Positions 5,295 through 13,225 of a stretch of 33,056 bases of DNA are shown in pieces (position 1 is the stretch's first letter; the number at the start of each line of letters is the position of its first letter). The stretch is taken from IMG/VR virus record IMGVR_UViG_3300025806_000104, positions 1 to 33,056 of that record, one strand, 5' to 3'. A model generated the notes under the pieces. It made no database searches, had not been told where the DNA came from, and saw nothing but the letters and a program-made list of their open reading frames with translations. Source of the DNA: a virus. Lineage: Duplodnaviria; Caudoviricetes. A program made the position numbers and the translations under genes.

Positions 5295-5762
5295 ATGTCA
5301 TTCAAGTTATCAGATAGAAGTTTGTCTCGCCTTCGTGGTGTTCACCCTGATCTGGTCAAGGTGGTGAAGGCTGCGATTGACGTAACTGATGTAGACTTTG
5401 GTGTTGGAATTGGTTTGAGAACCGAGGAAGAACAGGCTGCTCTTGTCGCCAAGGGCGCATCACAAACTATGAAGAGCAAACACCTGCGTCAGGATGATGG
5501 CTTCTGTCATGCTGTTGACCTCTTTGCTTATGTTGGTGGCAATGTGGATTGGTCACTGCCTCTCTATGATAACATCGCTGATGCAATGAAGAAGGGTGCG
5601 TTAGCTCACTCTGTTCAATTGCGTTGGGGCGCTGCTTGGTCTGTCCCAAATGTTATGGAGTGGGAAGGTACAATGGAAGAGGCGATGAACTCTTATATAG
5701 ATTTACGCCGCTCCCAAGATCGCCGTCCCTTTATTGATGGGCCTCATTTTGAATTGATGTAG
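5295..5762 (+). CDS. Endolysin, M15-family L-Ala-D-Glu peptidase
   Basis: LS.RS..RL.GVHPDL, GLRT..EQ, SKHL...HAVD, RWG, DGPHFEL motifs; start at ATG 5295. Confidence 0.9.
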   Translation: MSFKLSDRSLSRLRGVHPDLVKVVKAAIDVTDVDFGVGIGLRTEEEQAALVAKGASQTMKSKHLRQDDGFCHAVDLFAYVGGNVDWSLPLYDNIADAMKKGALAHSVQLRWGAAWSVPNVMEWEGTMEEAMNSYIDLRRSQDRRPFIDGPHFELM

Positions 5763-5958
5763 GTCTTGCCTTTGGTCTGAGCGACCAGTCTGGTGCAAGC
5801 TTTTGTTCCTGTTCGTAGTTGGTGCGGTTGCCACTTGTATCTACGCCAACACACTGATCGTGAAATCCATGCAAGTCATGGAATCTTACAAAGTCTTGAC
5901 AGTCTTGCCAGTCAGTGAACGGCAAGAAGGCAATGAAAGCGAAGCTAAGATTGTTCAT
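5731..5958 (-). CDS. Hypothetical protein with SLRPKARP motif
   Basis: AGGAG SD; last gene of the leftward operon; 3' end overlaps the endolysin by 32 nt. Confidence 0.55.
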   Translation of the reverse strand: MNNLSFAFIAFLPFTDWQDCQDFVRFHDLHGFHDQCVGVDTSGNRTNYEQEQKLAPDWSLRPKARPTSIQNEAHQ

Positions 5959-6238
5959 TAGCCAACTCCTTTAGATTATATCTACTAATGATTTGGCTGA
6001 CTGCTTGATGCGAGGTGCCGACAACTTGCGCTATGGCGCGGACATTCATATCGGACTTTATGCAGAGTAATATTTTTTCTGCCTTCTTAGAAAGCTCTTG
6101 CTTTTTACTTGGCCTGCCTCCCTTGTATCCTCCGTCCCTGCCTTTCATCCCCGCGATAACGTTGCTCCCGCCTATGCGAGAGAGCATCCTTGCGTTCTCT
6201 ACTTTTGCATAGACCATCATCTTTTCTAGTTGTGTCAC
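5945..6238 (-). CDS. HTH DNA-binding protein (C-terminal HTH)
   Basis: MNVRAIAQVVGTSHQAVSQII helix-turn-helix; AAGGAG SD before a GTG start. Confidence 0.7.
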   Translation of the reverse strand: MTQLEKMMVYAKVENARMLSRIGGSNVIAGMKGRDGGYKGGRPSKKQELSKKAEKILLCIKSDMNVRAIAQVVGTSHQAVSQIISRYNLKELANEQS

Positions 6239-6348
6239 TTGACTTGCTCTCCTTTGTTTTGTTTAATGGATTTGTGAGGCGGCGCTCTCAGAAACCCAAA
6301 CTTTTTGTATCGTTTACCTGCCTGTTAAACTTGATATGAACTGCCGCT

Positions 6349-6537
6349 TCACACCTTATCAGGCCATCTTGCTCTTAAAAATTTTATATCGTAGTGGTGC
6401 GCAAAGCGTCGAAGCACAGGCTCATCACATCTCAGTATCTTAGCTGCGTCTTTCATTGTGTAATTAGCAGCAAAGCTTTGAACGAGTTCAATCTTCTCTC
6501 GCTGATGTCTAGCTTTTATTTCCTGCCATGTTTCCAT
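6349..6537 (-). CDS. Small Fis-like HTH protein
   Basis: YTMKDAAKILRCDEPVLRRFA pattern; AAGGA SD. Confidence 0.55.
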   Translation of the reverse strand: METWQEIKARHQREKIELVQSFAANYTMKDAAKILRCDEPVLRRFAHHYDIKFLRARWPDKV

Positions 6538-6550
6538 GATATTTCCTTAG

Positions 6551-6579
6551 AAAAAAAAGGACGCTCCGAAGAGCGCCCA
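6551..6579 (-). terminator. Rho-independent terminator
   Basis: Minus strand reads GGGCGCTC-TTCG-GAGCGTCC followed by a T run. Confidence 0.8.
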
Positions 6580-6624
6580 AGTCTGTGAGTATTGAGGCAG
6601 ACTCACTGGGTATAATGATTTATC

Positions 6625-7023
6625 CTAGAACGGAATGTCATCTTCTGGCAAGGGTTTTGATGGATCAGGAATCTTTCTTTCCTCAGTGCCACCTTGCTTA
6701 TCGCTGACGTTAAAGGACATATAAGGCTTGCCGTCTTTCATCCTGCGCCAACCTGCAATCCGTTTCTCAAGCGGAGATTCGACCACCTGTTTTATTGGGC
6801 CAGAGTAATCGGGCGCTGCTTCGTTGCCCTTCTTGTCATTCTCAAATAGAACGCCGACTTTCTGAAAGACCTCAACAATCTTTCTGCCGTCTCGCGTTTC
6901 GTCTGAAACCAAGACAATCTTATTGTCATTGCCATCAACATTCACCTTGCCCTGCAAAATCATCTTCTGTGTAGGGAAAGGTGTGAAGGCTGCGCCTCGG
7001 TTTGTTTCGTCATATTCTGCCAT
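6625..7023 (-). CDS. Single-stranded DNA-binding-like protein (DUF736-like)
   Basis: ENDKKGNEAAPDYSG motif and acidic C-terminal DDIPF tail; follows the exonuclease and annealase genes. Confidence 0.65.
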   Translation of the reverse strand: MAEYDETNRGAAFTPFPTQKMILQGKVNVDGNDNKIVLVSDETRDGRKIVEVFQKVGVLFENDKKGNEAAPDYSGPIKQVVESPLEKRIAGWRRMKDGKPYMSFNVSDKQGGTEERKIPDPSKPLPEDDIPF

Positions 7024-7132
7024 GCTTTTGGCTCCTAGTTAGTAATTGTGGGGCGGCTCTTAGTGAAGAGTTCTACCGCGCCGCCCCTTGTACGGTCAGT
7101 CCAGAGGCAGGAGAACGCCCCCCTTCACAAGA

Positions 7133-7579
7133 TTACCACCCATTGTTGGATGAGCCGCCACTGTCTGCGGCATACTTATTGCCATCCATTTCTCCTAAGA
7201 AGACGTCAGCATTACAGCCAACGTGTGACAGGGCTTTAGTCAAACCATCAGTGACAGCCATCTTGGGGGCATCCTCTGCCATTCGTCCTTTGACTGAATC
7301 AAAGAACTTACGACAGCCAGTGAATGGCCCGAACACATTTGATGGATTGCCATGCCAGACAGAGACATGAGCAAGCACTGCGCTATCTCCGTTGCTGACG
7401 TTGACGATTTGTGTTTCACTGTGCCAACCCCATCCGTCACCAACAGGGCCAAACTCTTCGGTCATCATTCTGACCTGATATTGTGGATCAATAGCTGTAA
7501 AGCTACGCGCTCCAAAGCTGACCTTCTTCAGATACTTGGGGTCTGAAGAGGACAGCCTGTTCCATATTTCCATAGTCAT
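7133..7579 (-). CDS. Single-strand annealing protein (Rad52/Sak-like)
   Basis: IDPQYQVRMMTEEFGPVGDGWG...EDAPKMAVTDGLTKALSHVGCNADVF; coupled to the exonuclease gene. Confidence 0.65.
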   Translation of the reverse strand: MTMEIWNRLSSSDPKYLKKVSFGARSFTAIDPQYQVRMMTEEFGPVGDGWGWHSETQIVNVSNGDSAVLAHVSVWHGNPSNVFGPFTGCRKFFDSVKGRMAEDAPKMAVTDGLTKALSHVGCNADVFLGEMDGNKYAADSGGSSNNGW

Positions 7580-8355
7580 TTCACTTCTCCATTTCGTTTA
7601 GTAATTCTTAATGCCCCTCGTTTGTCTCGTCTGACTGTGAGGAAATCACAGTAAACTTCTCTCTCATTTGGGGCGACCATTTCTTTGAGAGACTTCTTTG
7701 CGTTCTGGAATACTTTGTCTTGCTCAAGTCCTTGGGTGTATGTGACTGCTGTGTTGACAAACTCGTTGCTTGTTGAGGCATCTCGTATGACCATGTTGTC
7801 CACCTGAATGGAGTTGGTTGAGATGTCTGGCGCTTGAATACCAATCGGCTCTTCGTTGCGTACAACGTGACCCCAGAAATCTGACACCACTGCCCACATA
7901 GAATTGAAATACGAGTAGTCATATGAGACAACAGTTGACTCCCATTTATTGTTACCAAAGATTACAGACATGTAAACATCTGGCGCTCCTGCCAGCCGAC
8001 AATACAATTGTATCTGCGGCATGTAGTATTGGATAACTTTTTCCATAGTGTTGTATGAATTAGTATGCTTTGCCTCGACAACAGCATCACCAAACATTGC
8101 ATCTATTGTACCCTTCACAGGGACAGACCCAATGGTATCTTCATACTCGCACTGATGATCCGACAGCACACAGTCATACTCAGTCTCGAACCAGTCAAGG
8201 TTAAAGTCCTCAGTGTGTATGCCCATCTGAACAGCTAAATTTTTTGACAGATCAGGGGAATCTATCTTCCCTGTTTTGATTTGCCATAGCTCAAGCCAGT
8301 TACCCTGCATAATTTTTACACAGTCAGACCCGCCTATGAAGCCAGTTCGTTTCAT
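7576..8355 (-). CDS. YqaJ/lambda-exonuclease family protein
   Basis: R.GFIGGSD, G...E, GTIDA..., EAK, YMPQIQLY motifs. Confidence 0.9.
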   Translation of the reverse strand: MKRTGFIGGSDCVKIMQGNWLELWQIKTGKIDSPDLSKNLAVQMGIHTEDFNLDWFETEYDCVLSDHQCEYEDTIGSVPVKGTIDAMFGDAVVEAKHTNSYNTMEKVIQYYMPQIQLYCRLAGAPDVYMSVIFGNNKWESTVVSYDYSYFNSMWAVVSDFWGHVVRNEEPIGIQAPDISTNSIQVDNMVIRDASTSNEFVNTAVTYTQGLEQDKVFQNAKKSLKEMVAPNEREVYCDFLTVRRDKRGALRITKRNGEVK

Positions 8356-8381
8356 GATTTTCTCCTTCTGGTACAGTAGTT

Positions 8382-8410
8382 AGACTACTGCATATGTGCA
8401 GACTACGCAA
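8382..8410 (-). promoter_or_regulatory. Sigma70-type promoter with operator palindrome in the spacer
   Basis: TTGCGT-N17-TAGTCT on the minus strand; ACTGC-N6-GCAG at 8387-8401. Confidence 0.6.
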
Positions 8411-8660
8411 GATACTTTCTGAAGTCAGCTTCAGTTAAGTTTGTAAATTCTAGCAGCCTTTCTTTCTGCTTACCTTTGAGATAGCTCTCGCCGATTGGCT
8501 CTCCGTTTTTGATGCGTCGAGCCATCACCTCGTATTCGTCGAGAACATAATTTGTACGCTTGTATTCTTTAGCGTAGTGAGGTGAGCTTGTTGCTTTGCT
8601 AACGTGTGCATCCCACACATTGCCTTCGACATACTTGCCAATGCTAGTTGGTTTCTTCAT
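8403..8660 (-). CDS. Hypothetical protein
   Basis: 85-aa ORF in the tightly packed leftward operon. Confidence 0.55.
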   Translation of the reverse strand: MKKPTSIGKYVEGNVWDAHVSKATSSPHYAKEYKRTNYVLDEYEVMARRIKNGEPIGESYLKGKQKERLLEFTNLTEADFRKYLA

Positions 8661-8937
8661 ACTTCAATGCCTTTGTCCTAAAGAACCCTGCATATTCTGG
8701 ATTCATTGCCATGAACAATCGTGAATAATAGGCGATGTAATTATTGCTAATCTTAAAATCTTCGCCTGTTGTTTCGATCATGGTTTCCCATCTAATTCTA
8801 TTTACAATTAACCAAGCACTTAATCGGTTATGCCCTCGGTTAATTGCTTGCATGGTAAACCTTTCAAAGAGTTCATAGACGTGTGGGTTATCTTTATGCC
8901 AAGCCCACCACTTTAGTTTATCTGGATTCTCCTTCAT
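8644..8937 (-). CDS. Conserved phage hypothetical protein (possible DNA-binding)
   Basis: HKDNPHVYELFERF...IVNRIRWE...FKISNNYIAYYSRLF..P...GFF; GGAG SD. Confidence 0.65.
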   Translation of the reverse strand: MKENPDKLKWWAWHKDNPHVYELFERFTMQAINRGHNRLSAWLIVNRIRWETMIETTGEDFKISNNYIAYYSRLFMAMNPEYAGFFRTKALKYEETN

Positions 8938-9259
8938 TAATCTTCTCCATTAGCTGTTGAAATTCATCGCCACTCATAATGACTAGCGTTTGCGGACTGC
9001 CTGTCCGTCTTTTATAGAAGGCAATGTCTCGCCTATCTAATACTGAGAAAGGGCTAGGGAAGTTGGACTTGTCCCTATACTTAACCTCTCCTACCATTTC
9101 TCGTCCGAAGACTTCGAGCTTGATGTCGCCGCTATACTCTCCTCCCAAGCTGCCTGAGAGGGGTTGCCTCTTCGCTTTGATCGGCGCTTTGATTTCGTTG
9201 AGCCAGTTGACGAACCACTTTTCGTGGTAAGTTCCTTTGTTCTTGTTACGGTTTGCCAT
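8918..9259 (-). CDS. Holliday junction resolvase (PD-(D/E)xK, Hjc-like)
   Basis: NKNKG..HE, R.PLSG, GDI, GEVKYR motifs. Confidence 0.8.
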   Translation of the reverse strand: MANRNKNKGTYHEKWFVNWLNEIKAPIKAKRQPLSGSLGGEYSGDIKLEVFGREMVGEVKYRDKSNFPSPFSVLDRRDIAFYKRRTGSPQTLVIMSGDEFQQLMEKINEGESR

Positions 9260-9408
9260 CTGTCTTCCTCATAACAATTAAGGCAGACGTACCAATGCTT
9301 TTGATAAGTGGCTGCGCTATTGTTTTTGCATATAGCAACGAACCAATCCGTTACTGTTTCACAAGCAATGCAAGTTATTGCACTACCTCTTTTGGACTTT
9401 GATGTCAT
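9091..9408 (-). CDS. Putative zinc-finger protein
   Basis: CIAC...CLNC in the part that fills the 9259-9383 gap; the C-terminal tail overlaps the resolvase. Confidence 0.45.
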   Translation of the reverse strand: MTSKSKRGSAITCIACETVTDWFVAICKNNSAATYQKHWYVCLNCYEEDRWQTVTRTKELTTKSGSSTGSTKSKRRSKRRGNPSQAAWEESIAATSSSKSSDEKW

Positions 9409-9631
9409 ATTCTAATGCGTCCAACCAACACATCAGCATAAAACCAGATGGGATTCTCTTGTGAGATTCCCACTTGTGGATCAGTGATGACGTACACCCG
9501 ATGTTATAGGCTAGCGATTCTTGGCTTAAACCTTGCTCGAACCGAGCGTCGATTAACATCTTGATTAGTTTCTCGTAGTCTCTGGGTATAGTCACGGGCT
9601 TGTTGAATCGAGTGAAGCTCTTCGATGGCAT
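9383..9631 (-). CDS. XRE-family HTH regulator
   Basis: LIDARFEQGLSQESLAYNIGCTSSLIHKWESHKRIPS; start uncertain (9631 or 9559). Confidence 0.85.
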   Translation of the reverse strand: MPSKSFTRFNKPVTIPRDYEKLIKMLIDARFEQGLSQESLAYNIGCTSSLIHKWESHKRIPSGFMLMCWLDALEYDIKVQKR

Positions 9632-9788
9632 TGAATACCTTTGCAGCTGTCTCGTACCTTAGCTCTGTCGCTCCATTGATCGTGCGATAGTATGTTGATG
9701 TGGGGATTTGCGCCCTTTGGAAAGCTTTGCTCAACGGAATACTATACTCCGTTGAACAATCTATTACGGTTTGTAAGTACGATTTCAT
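9504..9788 (-). CDS. Cro/XRE-like HTH regulator
   Basis: LSKAFQRAQIPTSTYYRTINGATELRYETAAKV; no SD, possibly leaderless. Confidence 0.7.
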   Translation of the reverse strand: MKSYLQTVIDCSTEYSIPLSKAFQRAQIPTSTYYRTINGATELRYETAAKVFNAIEELHSIQQARDYTQRLRETNQDVNRRSVRARFKPRIASL

Positions 9789-9792
9789 ACCG

Positions 9793-9823
9793 CACTTACT
9801 GCATAGACGCAGCTAGAAGTCAA
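9793..9823 (-). promoter_or_regulatory. Putative promoter/operator for the HTH operon
   Basis: TTGACT at 9823-9818, ACTGC-N6-GCAG at 9798-9812, weak -10. Confidence 0.45.
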
Positions 9824-9989
9824 CCTCCTGTTCCTTTAGCTGAAGTCTATACCCTTGTATGTTGATCCCAATGTGGGCAAGCTCGGTTGATACCCAACTT
9901 GGCCTGACACCAGTTCCATACTGTTCAATCAATTCATTGTAGTCTTTTGTTTCACGCTGAATTGCTTGTTCAATATCAGTCTTTGTCAC
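9813..9989 (-). CDS. 58-aa hypothetical protein (missing from the ORF track)
   Basis: AGGAG SD, GTG start, MTKTDIEQAIQRETKDYNELIEQYGTGVRPSWVSTELAHIG...EVDF*. Confidence 0.65.
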   Translation of the reverse strand: MTKTDIEQAIQRETKDYNELIEQYGTGVRPSWVSTELAHIGINIQGYRLQLKEQEVDF

Positions 9990-10257
9990 TGATCTCTCCT
10001 TCCTTCATCCAAGGTGGCACTGCGCTTGGGTTGTTTTTAATCCACTCTATGCGCAAAGCGTTCTTAGTTTCTAACAGTTCAGCGATATAATCTGATGCTG
10101 TATCTTTTGAGATAGGCAAAGAAAACTCTGGTAGCTGAACAACTGAATGAGGATTTAGAAACGTACACTCATAAAGCAATTGACCCATGCGGTAGTATTG
10201 CTTTGCTGTTGCTGCATCTGGATCATGGATGCAATCGTTGCGAACAATGCCAATCAT
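9976..10257 (-). CDS. Hypothetical protein
   Basis: Start at ATG 10257 (TAATG coupling to the upstream gene). Confidence 0.55.
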   Translation of the reverse strand: MIGIVRNDCIHDPDAATAKQYYRMGQLLYECTFLNPHSVVQLPEFSLPISKDTASDYIAELLETKNALRIEWIKNNPSAVPPWMKEGEISDKD

Positions 10258-10466
10258 TAGCCTGTTCTCCACACATAAACGTCATTACTTATTGTTCGTT
10301 GAGATGCGGTAAAGCCATTTTGAAGCATTAGCTTTCTGATGTAAGTTGCTTGATATTTTGACTCTGCTTTAACAGCGTCACCAACTTGCATTAAGTCAAT
10401 AACTTTCTTCATGCCATCGCTTCTTAGCTTTGGCATTTCAAGTCCACGTATAATTTTAACTCCCAT
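10257..10466 (-). CDS. Small hypothetical protein
   Basis: AAGGAG SD before ATG 10466; MGVKIIRGLEMPK...MQVGDAV...VYVWRTG. Confidence 0.6.
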   Translation of the reverse strand: MGVKIIRGLEMPKLRSDGMKKVIDLMQVGDAVKAESKYQATYIRKLMLQNGFTASQRTISNDVYVWRTG

Positions 10467-10479
10467 TTTGGTTCTCCTT

Positions 10480-10683
10480 TTAATATGGGATTTCGTCATC
10501 AATAATTGGTGGCAGATTTTTCTGCTCCCATTTAGCGATGGCTCTTGCGAGAAACTTTTTACGATTAAACTTGTCGTTTAGTTTCTCAAGGTCATCAGCA
10601 ATCTGTTCGATTACGATTGGCGATGATACAAGCGGCGCTAAGTGATCCGCTATGTATTCAAAGTGTCCGCGTGTTGCTTTCAT
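10480..10683 (-). CDS. Hypothetical protein
   Basis: AGGAG SD, ATGA coupling; TRGHFEYIA...NDKFNRKKF; ends DDEIPY. Confidence 0.6.
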   Translation of the reverse strand: MKATRGHFEYIADHLAPLVSSPIVIEQIADDLEKLNDKFNRKKFLARAIAKWEQKNLPPIIDDEIPY

Positions 10684-11519
10684 GCTAGCTCCTTCCATGC
10701 GCTAGAACGCATTGCACTGGTGATGATTGCCTCACGGTTATGACGCGCTGTATGAGGGCTGCGCATATCCTGAGTGTGTGTCGCCCAATGCGTTAGGGTA
10801 TTGTATAAAGCCCACTTGTTCGGGCCGAGATGTCCTCGCTCATCGCCCCATAGACCGAGCAGGTTTTCTAGTTGGCGCTCGTTAGTCTTGGTGGTGTTGG
10901 CTTGGCGAGTGTGCATTTTGCAGAGGTGCTTTTTGAAGAAGCTTTCTGCTTGGTCATTGCTGATCTTTACACCCATGTAAGATTGCCATATGTCCTTCTG
11001 TTCTTTAAAGGCAGACATCCCATTAGCAATCTTGATAGCCGATCCTTCTACGTTAATGGATCGTGTGTGTTTGTATTTAGAATAAGCTGAGATGTCAGCA
11101 GTAGTGCAACCGTTCTTGCACCATAACCGATTGCCTTGACTCCATTGAGCAAACGACCAACTACCATCAAGACTGTTGGTTGCTAGCGCTTCGTATCGCA
11201 CATAGTCACCGACCTCTGGTTCGATAGTTACATCAGGCCATATGATCCTAGCTCTTAGCTTGCGACCACCTTCATAGACTTCAATCTTAGTCTTGAAATC
11301 TGAACTAATGTTAGCTGCTTTGGCTGCATCAAGTATAGATTCAACAGCTAGGTCATGGCTAACAGGTTTGTATTTACTGCCGTGAACACCCATCACTTCA
11401 TCAGTGTCAGTGCGGATCACTTGTACCGAATTGGGTACAGGCTCACCAGTCACAGCGTTAGGCGTTGGCATCATCTTGATTGGGAAGTTCCAATCGTTGA
11501 TGGGCTTCATAAAAGTCAT
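10680..11519 (-). CDS. DUF932-family phage/plasmid early protein
   Basis: VIRTDT...G..GSKYKPV.H, NSLDGS, R.WCKNG, KHT, WALYNTLTHW.TH motifs; AAGGAG SD before ATG 11519. Confidence 0.75.
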   Translation of the reverse strand: MTFMKPINDWNFPIKMMPTPNAVTGEPVPNSVQVIRTDTDEVMGVHGSKYKPVSHDLAVESILDAAKAANISSDFKTKIEVYEGGRKLRARIIWPDVTIEPEVGDYVRYEALATNSLDGSWSFAQWSQGNRLWCKNGCTTADISAYSKYKHTRSINVEGSAIKIANGMSAFKEQKDIWQSYMGVKISNDQAESFFKKHLCKMHTRQANTTKTNERQLENLLGLWGDERGHLGPNKWALYNTLTHWATHTQDMRSPHTARHNREAIITSAMRSSAWKELA

Positions 11520-11547
11520 TTTGTTTCTCCTTTTCATGACTGTAGGG

Positions 11548-11563
11548 ACTGCTAGTATGCAGT
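11548..11563. promoter_or_regulatory. Operator-like palindrome ACTGC-TAGTAT-GCAGT
   Basis: Perfect 5-bp arms; variants at 8387 and 9798, each upstream of a leftward gene. Confidence 0.55.
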
Positions 11564-11583
11564 GTTAATAATTAATAATCTAT

Positions 11584-11600
11584 TGTTACGTTACGTCACT
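11584..11600 (+). repeat. 17-bp direct repeat, copy 1 (TGTTACGTTACGTCACT)
   Basis: Identical copy at 12542-12558. Confidence 0.9.
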
Positions 11601-11646
11601 TTGCCTCCTTATATAAATAACCGGACACTTTTTTATACTTGGCACA

Positions 11647-11704
11647 ACCTTCCACACCTTCCACACCTTCCACAAGTTGAGAGAGTTGACACAGTTGAAG
11701 TTGA
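11647..11704 (+). repeat. 9-bp periodic repeats: 3x ACCTTCCAC then 4x AGTTGA
   Basis: ACCTTCCAC at 11647, 11656, 11665; AGTTGA at 11675, 11684, 11693, 11699. Confidence 0.85.
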
Positions 11705-11804
11705 TAGTCAGCGACTGAGTTTAGAAACAATAGTCAGCTATCAAAACCACAACGCTCGGCGCTGTAGCTATGACCTCCAGAGCCGCATCAGGTAAGTAAT
11801 GATA

Positions 11805-11837
11805 ACACAACAAACAGCGCCACAAAGAGTGACGCTG
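11805..11837 (-). terminator. Putative terminator after the 127-aa ORF
   Basis: Minus strand CAGCGTCAC-TCTTT-GTGGCGCTG followed by TTTGTTGTGTT. Confidence 0.55.
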
Positions 11838-11867
11838 CTGCGATTGTGTCTGACAGTAGCGGTGGCA

Positions 11868-12251
11868 TTAAGCCACTCGCTTTCTGAGTTCAGAGAAGTT
11901 ACGTTTCTTGGGGGTGGCAACTGGCTTGTTCGGTAGCCAAGTCTCACCGCCGCTAAAGTGCTTATAAACCTCAATGTCTGCATCGTGTCGGACTTGAAGC
12001 TCCTCAAGCTCTGGGCAAAGGCGATCAATCCAGCGTTGGGTGCGTTCTTGATCGTGTAGATTCTTAACCTCAACAGCTATGTCATATTCAGCTAGCGCGT
12101 CAGCAATTTGCTTACGTTTGAATTGCAAGCTGTTGTGTGACGTATAGCAAGCATCTCTAGATAGACCTACGAGGAACTTGCTATTATCGTGGTTATGATA
12201 GTTTATAACTTCGAGTTTCAGTTTTGCGAGTTTAGATAATACCTTAGTCAT
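11868..12251 (-). CDS. 127-aa helical hypothetical protein, first leftward gene
   Basis: AAGGAG SD at 12265-12260; family not recognised. Confidence 0.75.
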   Translation of the reverse strand: MTKVLSKLAKLKLEVINYHNHDNSKFLVGLSRDACYTSHNSLQFKRKQIADALAEYDIAVEVKNLHDQERTQRWIDRLCPELEELQVRHDADIEVYKHFSGGETWLPNKPVATPKKRNFSELRKRVA

Positions 12252-12433
12252 TGCTAGTTCTCCTTGTTATGTGGTGCGAGGATCATCCCCGCACGGCGAC
12301 TTGAAGCACGGAGCAGAAACGCCCAAAGGCGCTTGCAGTTCGCAATATCCGAGGTACGAGCGGTATTGCGAACTGTTTCTGCCCGATGCTCAACAAAGAC
12401 GGGCGGGGATGACCGCAGCCTCCACTAGCAAGG
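12251..12433 (-). ncRNA. Long branched stem-loop (structured leader, ncRNA or ssDNA hairpin)
   Basis: Nested inverted repeats 12283-92/12403-12, 12313-19/12376-82, 12336-47/12364-75; side hairpin 12320-31. Confidence 0.6.
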
Positions 12434-12520
12434 TGATCGACGCTTTGACTAATTATCTGAACGAGCAAACTGTAACGAGCGGTGTAGTATGTGGTAGTAC
12501 GTCAATAGCTTTGGCAAGGT

Positions 12521-12558
12521 GTGACGTAGGGTAATTGGCAATGTTACGTTACGTCACT
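12521..12558. repeat. 17-bp direct repeat copy 2 plus an imperfect inverted copy
   Basis: GTGACGTAGGGTAA-N9-TTACGTTACGTCAC (12/14 arm match), followed by TTGACA at 12560-12565. Confidence 0.75.
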
Positions 12559-12732
12559 ATTGACAGCACATCACAGGATGGTGTTAGCGTGGGGGGAGAG
12601 AGGGAGAGGGGGGCAAGCGAATGAGACATACAATGATACAATCCTTCTTTATGATGCTTGCACCATCTAGCAAACACAGACAACAACAGTTAGCTATGTG
12701 TATGTCATCAGCATAGAAGAAAGGATTGTAAC

Positions 12733-13107
12733 ATGGGTGAAGTTACCCGAAAGTTGACAGATAAACAGACAGCCCTCGTTGACACCATTGTAGCAAATGG
12801 CTGCTCCATCAAGGATGCTGCTCCAATAGCAGGTTATGCAGTTGGCGAGTCTGGAAGAGTAACAGCAACCAAGACTATGAAGTTGCCTCATGTGCAGCAG
12901 TACATGATGGAAAGGATGAATGAGGAGTTTGGATTATCGGCTACTATCGCTGCAAGACAACTCCGTACCTTGGTAGTCAACGCCAAGTCTGAGTATGTCC
13001 AGTTAGAGGCATCGAAGGATTTGCTAGACCGTGCAGGGTATAAACCGATTGATCGCAGCCAAGTGCAGGTTGCAGGGGACATACGTGTCTCAATCGATCT
13101 AGGATAA
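12733..13107 (+). CDS. terS: Terminase small subunit
   Basis: LTDKQ...AA.IAGY N-terminal HTH; SEYVQLEASKDLLDRAGYKP; first rightward gene. Confidence 0.8.
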   Translation: MGEVTRKLTDKQTALVDTIVANGCSIKDAAPIAGYAVGESGRVTATKTMKLPHVQQYMMERMNEEFGLSATIAARQLRTLVVNAKSEYVQLEASKDLLDRAGYKPIDRSQVQVAGDIRVSIDLG

Positions 13108-13225
13108 AACTGTTCATTGATCGTTCCGTCATGGGGGTGGGGGGGAAAAACTGCATGACCTGTTACTGTAATAGTCTCTCACTAACATTATTTCCTTTCA
13201 GAGCTTGCCCACGAATGTGGGCTAA

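Follow-up and report, generated by a model that had tools for sequence, protein, structure and literature searches.

The early promoters of coliphage N4 are short template-strand DNA hairpins that are read by a virion polymerase of ~3,500 residues, and 6S RNA is a rod that mimics an open promoter and whose 5′ strand serves as the template. Single-stranded DNA (ssDNA) promoters of the Frpo type are described for conjugative plasmids, which enter in single-stranded form, in three reports (PMC9849209, PMC11541004, PMC12672017), and a further one supports a priming role of such elements (10.64898/2026.01.09.698686). In the open-access literature we found no description of an ssDNA promoter used by the host polymerase in a tailed dsDNA phage. 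Nor did we find there a description of the rod-shaped element presented here, which the supplementary tables of large phage RNA-motif screens, lying outside the scope of that search, may list as an unnamed RNA candidate. The rod is a real, conserved and strand-specific structure, and on balance we think it probable that it acts as an Frpo-like ssDNA promoter in a tailed phage.

The stretch of DNA analysed, hereafter the window, comprises positions 1 to 33,056 of the IMG/VR record IMGVR_UViG_3300025806_000104 (33,056 nt; Duplodnaviria; Caudoviricetes), a linear record of a marine podovirus with an estimated completeness of 96%. Its structural genes are of podovirus type and occupy the + strand from terS (12733) onward, and a leftward early module on the - strand carries ORF1, a DUF932 gene, regulators, a resolvase-like gene, a YqaJ exonuclease and an SSB-like gene. 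The rod is situated between the two modules, reaching over the ORF1 start. Among the ORFs tested there was no polymerase, primase or helicase match, within the early module (5700-12251) no initiator match, and among the 50 ORFs of the window no relaxase or transfer gene match; the window is a tailed-phage record and not a conjugative leading region. The closest cultured relative is Pelagibacter phage Hodr (51% identity in the capsid, 48% in TerS). The features referred to below are the following, with the basis of each in brackets.

11813..11839, - strand: terminator-like hairpin 3′ of ORF1 (consensus scan)
11868..12251, - strand: ORF1, a 127-aa helical-hairpin protein, first gene of the leftward module (ORF call, predicted structure)
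12215..12476, + strand: rod with a three-way junction (~260 nt) over the ORF1 start, folding on the ORF1 template strand; candidate ssDNA promoter (folding, covariation, polarity)
12260..12265, - strand: Shine-Dalgarno (SD) sequence of ORF1 (sequence; conserved in the alignment)
12274..12294, - strand: local hairpin with mRNA polarity, where the ORF1 transcript is predicted to begin, with the putative +1 near 12294 (mismatch polarity, spacing, covariation)
12320..12334, + strand: side arm and 3-nt junction of the template arm, which loop out solely on folding (folding, spacing analysis)
12366..12371, + strand: -35-like hexamer TTGCGA on the 3′ arm, standing in for the non-template strand and paired with 12339-12344 (23 of 25 representatives)
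12387..12403, + strand: TG (12387-12388; extended -10-like), then a weakly paired, bubble-like zone at 12391-12403 (putative -11 to +2)
12521..12565, no strand assigned: operator-like palindromes and a TTGACA hexamer (12560-12565) ahead of the late operon (similar boxes in homologues)
12733..13107, + strand: terminase small subunit (terS), first late gene, anchoring the position of the element (phrog_2538, E 1.8e-12)

The terminator-like hairpin is a weak call because the scan gave 2 such structures against 1.4 expected. Operator-like palindromes of the GTGACG-N3-CGTCAC type lie at 11584-11600, 12521-12534 and 12542-12558, that is, in the DUF932 leader and the terS promoter; they occur in homologues too and are probably the site of a phage regulator. 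A 9-nt unit is repeated three times in tandem in the gap between ORF1 and DUF932 (11647-11674), and 12485-12506 holds short direct repeats (TAGTAYG) with a leftward TTGACR after them, an arrangement that many homologues have just right of the rod. G-rich tracts flank terS on either side (12591-12613 and 13133-13145), the upstream one being found in relatives as well, and a packaging or R-loop signal is possible. The gene at 7133-7579, adjoining the YqaJ exonuclease, resembles by eye a single-strand annealing protein, its PHROGs label being exonuclease. The same phage-type locus occurs on a contig of an archaeal MAG (L126); as this only genome match is a phage-like contig and probably a binning artefact, we rejected it as evidence of the host.

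No other 200-nt stretch of the window folds as stably as that of the rod (-95.0 kcal/mol, against -79.5 for the runner-up), and none of 200 shuffles folded as well on either strand (z = -8.68 for the + strand, -7.05 for the - strand). A sequence-only reading of this DNA had proposed a branched hairpin of ~180 nt at 12251..12433. Its three-way junction is real and the helices that it named are all in place (12283-12292/12403-12412, 12313-12319/12376-12382 and 12336-12347/12364-12375, with the side arm at 12320-12331), but the structure is longer, reaching from ~12215 to 12476 over ~260 nt, so that its left arm takes in the SD sequence, the start codon and the first ~12-13 codons of ORF1. The alternative pairing offered for the base of the hairpin, 12423-12430 with 12251-12258, is a perfect 8-bp match and yet has an ensemble probability of at most 0.017 and is not conserved; in L002, a relative with 98% identity, one change breaks this pairing and perfects the main helix on the + strand. 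The local hairpin at 12274-12294, regarded earlier as a competing fold, likewise exists and covaries, but inside the full rod its probability is below 1e-4. A search of Rfam placed the element in no known family: there was no match in the window, 6S models included, beyond four chance matches off the rod at E up to 10, and none in 13 related loci. Likenesses to hammerhead, SRP and pRNA were unsupported, and a peptide encoded on the 3′ arm was rejected, its reading frame stopping after 3 codons in L010.

Homologues of ORF1 (35-100% identity) were present in 29 of 80 TerS-anchored loci, and 45 loci were found with ORF1 as the query; the 75 ORF1-bearing entries, with one dropped as too short, represent 50 distinct upstream regions. 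A long rod covers the gene start in all 50. Covariation, which the sequence-only reading had suggested looking for, is present in both the rod and the local hairpin. In a 15-sequence alignment 25 pairs were chosen: 93% of their cells are paired and compensatory changes occur in 13 of them, values above those of all 500 shuffles and of all slid controls; related sequences can beat such shuffles without structure, and these figures are thus supportive rather than exact. Invariance of the apical helix within the 15 sequences is no evidence, because the search pattern contained that helix, and its conservation was judged from the ORF1-selected set instead. Lineages exchange the inner parts of the rod, the closing stem staying with the gene start. 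Accordingly composed loci include L034, in which the core of L015 is combined with a 35%-identical ORF1, and L003 and L006, which retain the core and a closing stem before much more distant first genes. Among 20 representatives the rod ends a median of 40 nt inside ORF1, the closing stem tracking whichever first gene follows, and we infer that the rod end corresponds approximately to the position of the polymerase once a ribosome can load. The rod is absent in four low-GC relatives. Another group of first genes (L008, L037, L044, L052, L055) is preceded by a rod of a different type, very long and with 6-nt bulges on one side; this rod has no clear -35 hexamer and little strand signal.

Various genes occupy the slot behind the rod. 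Profile comparison supports homology for one group (probability 92.8%) and did not demonstrate it for another, and a short C-terminal pattern recurs. ORF1 itself has no sequence match in Pfam, PHROG, NCBIfam or PDB and none among cultured phages. Its predicted structure (pLDDT 88.5) is a basic-tailed helical hairpin, and its fold matches are generic helical hairpins, the best of which, a lengthened Rop (Z 11.0, rmsd 2.2, 83 aligned), scores too low to be meaningful for helices; matches in the Atlas stayed below 0.9. A HUH motif was considered in ORF1 and rejected, the second His not being conserved. In the low-GC relatives an ArdC-type gene stands at or near the start of the module, a position that may hint at an establishment or anti-defence role.

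The molecule that folds is the + strand, the template of ORF1. This follows from two observations, the greater stability of the + strand fold, seen in 50 of 50 distinct regions, and the excess of G·T over A·C mismatches in folds computed without wobble pairs, which are strand-neutral and in which we counted single and tandem mismatches inside helices in + strand letters. Across 25 representatives G·T outnumbers A·C by 82 to 4, where composition predicts ~1.15:1; the helices over the SD sequence and first codons have 56 and 0, shuffles 20 and 26. Counting each sequence context once leaves 39 against 4. The same bias is seen in 51 distinct motif-found loci of the 60 examined (104 against 6) and in 22 relatives without an ORF1 match (33 against 12), and in 49 of the 51 motif-found loci the folded strand is the template of the adjacent leftward gene, the contigs of the other two ending there. 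The local hairpin has the opposite bias (A·C 7, G·T 0), from which it appears tuned for the mRNA strand. These tests of polarity are blind to whether the folded + strand is RNA or DNA.

The folded + strand presents promoter-like elements in a conserved geometry, which was fitted after seeing the data and on related sequences. A paired hexamer on the 3′ arm is found in 23 of 25 representatives, its positions 91-100% conserved and its sequence exactly TTGCGA in 20 of the 23, compared with 14 exact copies out of 22 on the template arm. It is the most sequence-conserved part of helices that covary elsewhere, the neighbouring pairs being variable. Counting from the hexamer, TG stands at positions 22-23 in 78% of representatives and A at position 26 in 70% of homologues (the window has C there), and mean pairing is 0.17-0.63 over positions 26-38 (13 nt) as against 0.80-0.98 over the next 11. 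With an 18-nt spacer the weakly paired zone corresponds to -11 to +2, which is what an open complex spans. Resemblance to a -10 is poor, and L085, L113, L114, L003 and L006 stay paired through the -10 zone, with no bubble. Along the template arm, hexamer and local hairpin are 51-61 nt apart in duplex DNA (22 of 23 parsed) and 33-43 nt apart with the side arm and junction looped out; the mean of 39 is 3 nt above the ~36 expected for +1. From this spacing we infer a start near 12294 in the window, at the first base of the local hairpin. In relatives without an ORF1 match a paired TTG-type hexamer (of the TTGACA/TTGACT kind) occupies the 3′ arm in 13 of 22, with exact TTGACA in L038, and the other 9 have no paired hexamer.

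Structure, covariation, strand polarity, this geometry and a module that relatives share with plasmids together favour the ssDNA hairpin signal that the sequence-only reading had offered as its second option, and suggest a mechanism in which the rod would work as DNA and be recognised by a polymerase. The promoter would exist only while the + strand is single-stranded DNA. The strand would then fold back, its 3′ arm taking the place of the non-template strand, and the fold would restore the -35 element as a duplex, together with an extended -10-like TG and a bubble already open, from which host sigma70 RNA polymerase would start near 12294 and copy the 5′ arm leftward into ORF1. In dsDNA the side arm inside the spacer would shift the leftward -35 away from its proper register. 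The nascent RNA would fold its own 5′ hairpin, with the long closing stem re-forming behind the polymerase until the RBS is out, and priming of DNA synthesis, described for Frpo, may be a further use of the transcript.

The single strand itself could come from resection of a genome end near terS or from strand displacement in replication. Terminal repeats are mentioned for related pelagiphages in one report (PMC10504331). If packaging starts near terS, the + strand is the 3′ strand at the rod end and would be freed by a host or phage exonuclease resecting 5′-to-3′. Of 50 distinct loci, 19 carry the plasmid-shared module on the + strand left of terS and 3 carry it on the - strand to the right, and 28 have no TerS match in reach; this orientation would agree with 3′ overhangs at two ends cut near terS.

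This module, of ~85 nt, adjoins the rods of relatives (9 phage loci, duplicates included) and is absent from the window. Two homologous copies lie on the template strand of F, ~480 nt upstream of the starts of ssb and ygeA, both Frpo-driven, and upstream of Frpo1/Frpo2. The intergenic region of L066 matches 3,611 plasmid records, and among the matches listed the best all fall in the module (~76% over 81 nt, best E 2e-6); conversely, the F copy as query finds 75 phage places. The module is structured in L038, L066, L076, L151 and at 6070-6190 and 11458-11578 of the F plasmid (L187), is carried by 63 viral loci and is common to marine phages and thousands of plasmids; we found nothing on it in the open-access literature. 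A 12-nt motif just 5′ of the hexamer occurs in 38 loci, the klcA-type promoters of F and pESBL among them. This kinship with plasmid leading regions is the strongest pointer to DNA over RNA. One may go further and picture an abundant family of tailed marine phages that use the ssDNA promoter as a sensor, the host polymerase transcribing the first gene only after resection has turned the entering end of the genome into a 3′ single strand, with elements drawn from a pool shared with conjugative leading regions; this extended picture we regard as doubtful.

The evidence on polarity would equally fit a + strand RNA of 260-370 nt acting as a cis-antisense regulator of ORF1 or as a 6S-like decoy that binds host RNA polymerase through an open-promoter shape. 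The layout, with an upstream helix, a bubble, a closing stem and the 5′ strand as template, is that of 6S RNA; tandem G·A pairs occur in 19 of 42 2x2 loops, G(CUUG)C loops in one lineage and a kink-turn-like loop in some homologues, and in the window a weak match to a + strand promoter has its end at 12187. However, no conserved + strand promoter exists left of the rod in 20 representatives, ORF1 having indels there, and most of the right flanks listed are without a U-tract; no loop of 61 in the rods is of GNRA or UNCG type, Rfam gave no match, and the module of the relatives is common to plasmid leading-region DNA. The sequence conservation of the -35 duplex, moreover, points to readout through the major groove, a mode hindered in A-form RNA. 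There is no enrichment of DNA-type GNA triloops either, and the loop census does not separate RNA from DNA; two RNA runs yielded contigs of related viruses at shares of 0.05-0.08, none spanning the rod, which says nothing on expression. We consider such an RNA unlikely. It is also conceivable that the rod is an ssDNA signal that only primes DNA synthesis, or stalls or recruits replication and recombination proteins in the manner of a single-strand origin, its link to ORF1 being positional. An exonuclease and an SSB-like gene in the early module, together with the lack of a polymerase, primase or helicase match among the ORFs tested, would suit this, and Frpo also makes primers according to PMC11541004 and PMC12672017. 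A purely positional link sits poorly, however, with a closing stem that follows the first gene to a median of 40 nt inside it, and with a local hairpin of mRNA polarity just before the SD sequence, and we hold this explanation to be distinctly unlikely.

The sequence-only reading had itself preferred a translational switch, in which the ORF1 mRNA leader folds into the rod and hides the RBS until refolding, an antisense RNA or RNase III opens it, as in type I toxin leaders. The - strand fold is indeed strong and buries the SD sequence (P 0.98-1.0), and a leftward TTGACR is seen by eye shortly right of the rod in many homologues, although, again by eye in the homologue flanks, no consensus -10 follows it. 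The G·U wobbles that such a leader requires on the mRNA are nearly absent there and are found on the other strand instead, for which the rod is optimised; the alternative pairing is both unfavourable and unconserved, the local hairpin, although it covaries, is no competitor within the rod, and no fold that would free the RBS is conserved. Selection of the structure on the + strand rather than the mRNA speaks equally against a toxin-like leader, and we judge a switch of this kind very improbable. Occlusion of the RBS survives as a side effect only: a read-through transcript of the - strand would bury SD-AUG, whose mean unpaired fraction over 14 representatives is 0.26 there as against 0.58 in a transcript starting at the local hairpin.

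The ssDNA promoter idea is directly testable, because a cultured SAR11 phage, Hodr, has a similar rod and many natural variants exist. In Hodr a rod of ~310 nt lies between terS and the divergent gene 022, covering the SD sequence and ~22 codons; its strand preference is slight (-148.0 against -147.7 as RNA, -90.3 against -87.4 as DNA). In its sequence (OQ414635, L186) positions 1537-1940 hold a near-perfect inverted repeat of ~310 nt over the start of gene 022, and ArdC-type and HTH-DnaT genes lie downstream of it. If the proposal is confirmed, these phages make programmed use of a genome segment that they expose as a single strand; this would constitute a new layer of early gene control, and the gene behind each such element would be flagged as a likely establishment or anti-defence factor.

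Set against known systems, the rod shares with hok/sok-type leaders a long-range fold that covers the RBS of the downstream gene, but its strand polarity is wrong for such a leader, and ORF1 is a 127-aa protein with many charged residues and not a small membrane peptide. From 6S RNA it differs in its sequence-conserved -35, its overlap with the start of an opposite-strand gene and its lack of an Rfam match. The N4 promoters resemble the proposed role in being template-strand DNA hairpins that drive the early genes of a tailed phage; they are short, whereas the rod measures ~260 nt and bears sigma70-like elements. Neither of the window's two largest virion proteins (1208 and 1262 aa) gave a polymerase match by sequence, and N4-type C-GNA-G loops on stems of at least 4 pairs number 0 in 112 regions. 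As regards the plasmid promoters, nine queries of the Frpo and class 1, 2 and 3 types returned 0 matches to the rod (positive control 75), a profile of the rod apex scored 7.2 bits on them against 4.9-8.9 in shuffles, and BLAST of the rod region found nothing in cultured phages and plasmids. The 9 plasmid promoter regions that served as controls all have their better fold on the template strand. The Frpo/ssi promoters of F and IncI plasmids (classes 1-3) have, like the rod, a large template-strand stem-loop just upstream of a first-expressed gene; they carry a paired TTG-type -35 on the 3′ arm, where the rod has its -35-like hexamer, and TTGCGA itself occurs among candidate Frpo sequences (PMC11541004, Supplementary file 7). 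The rod differs in residing in tailed dsDNA phages, in the side arm held by its template spacer and in a closing stem that runs through the SD sequence and ~13 codons. It would stand beside these families as their probable analogue rather than as a member.
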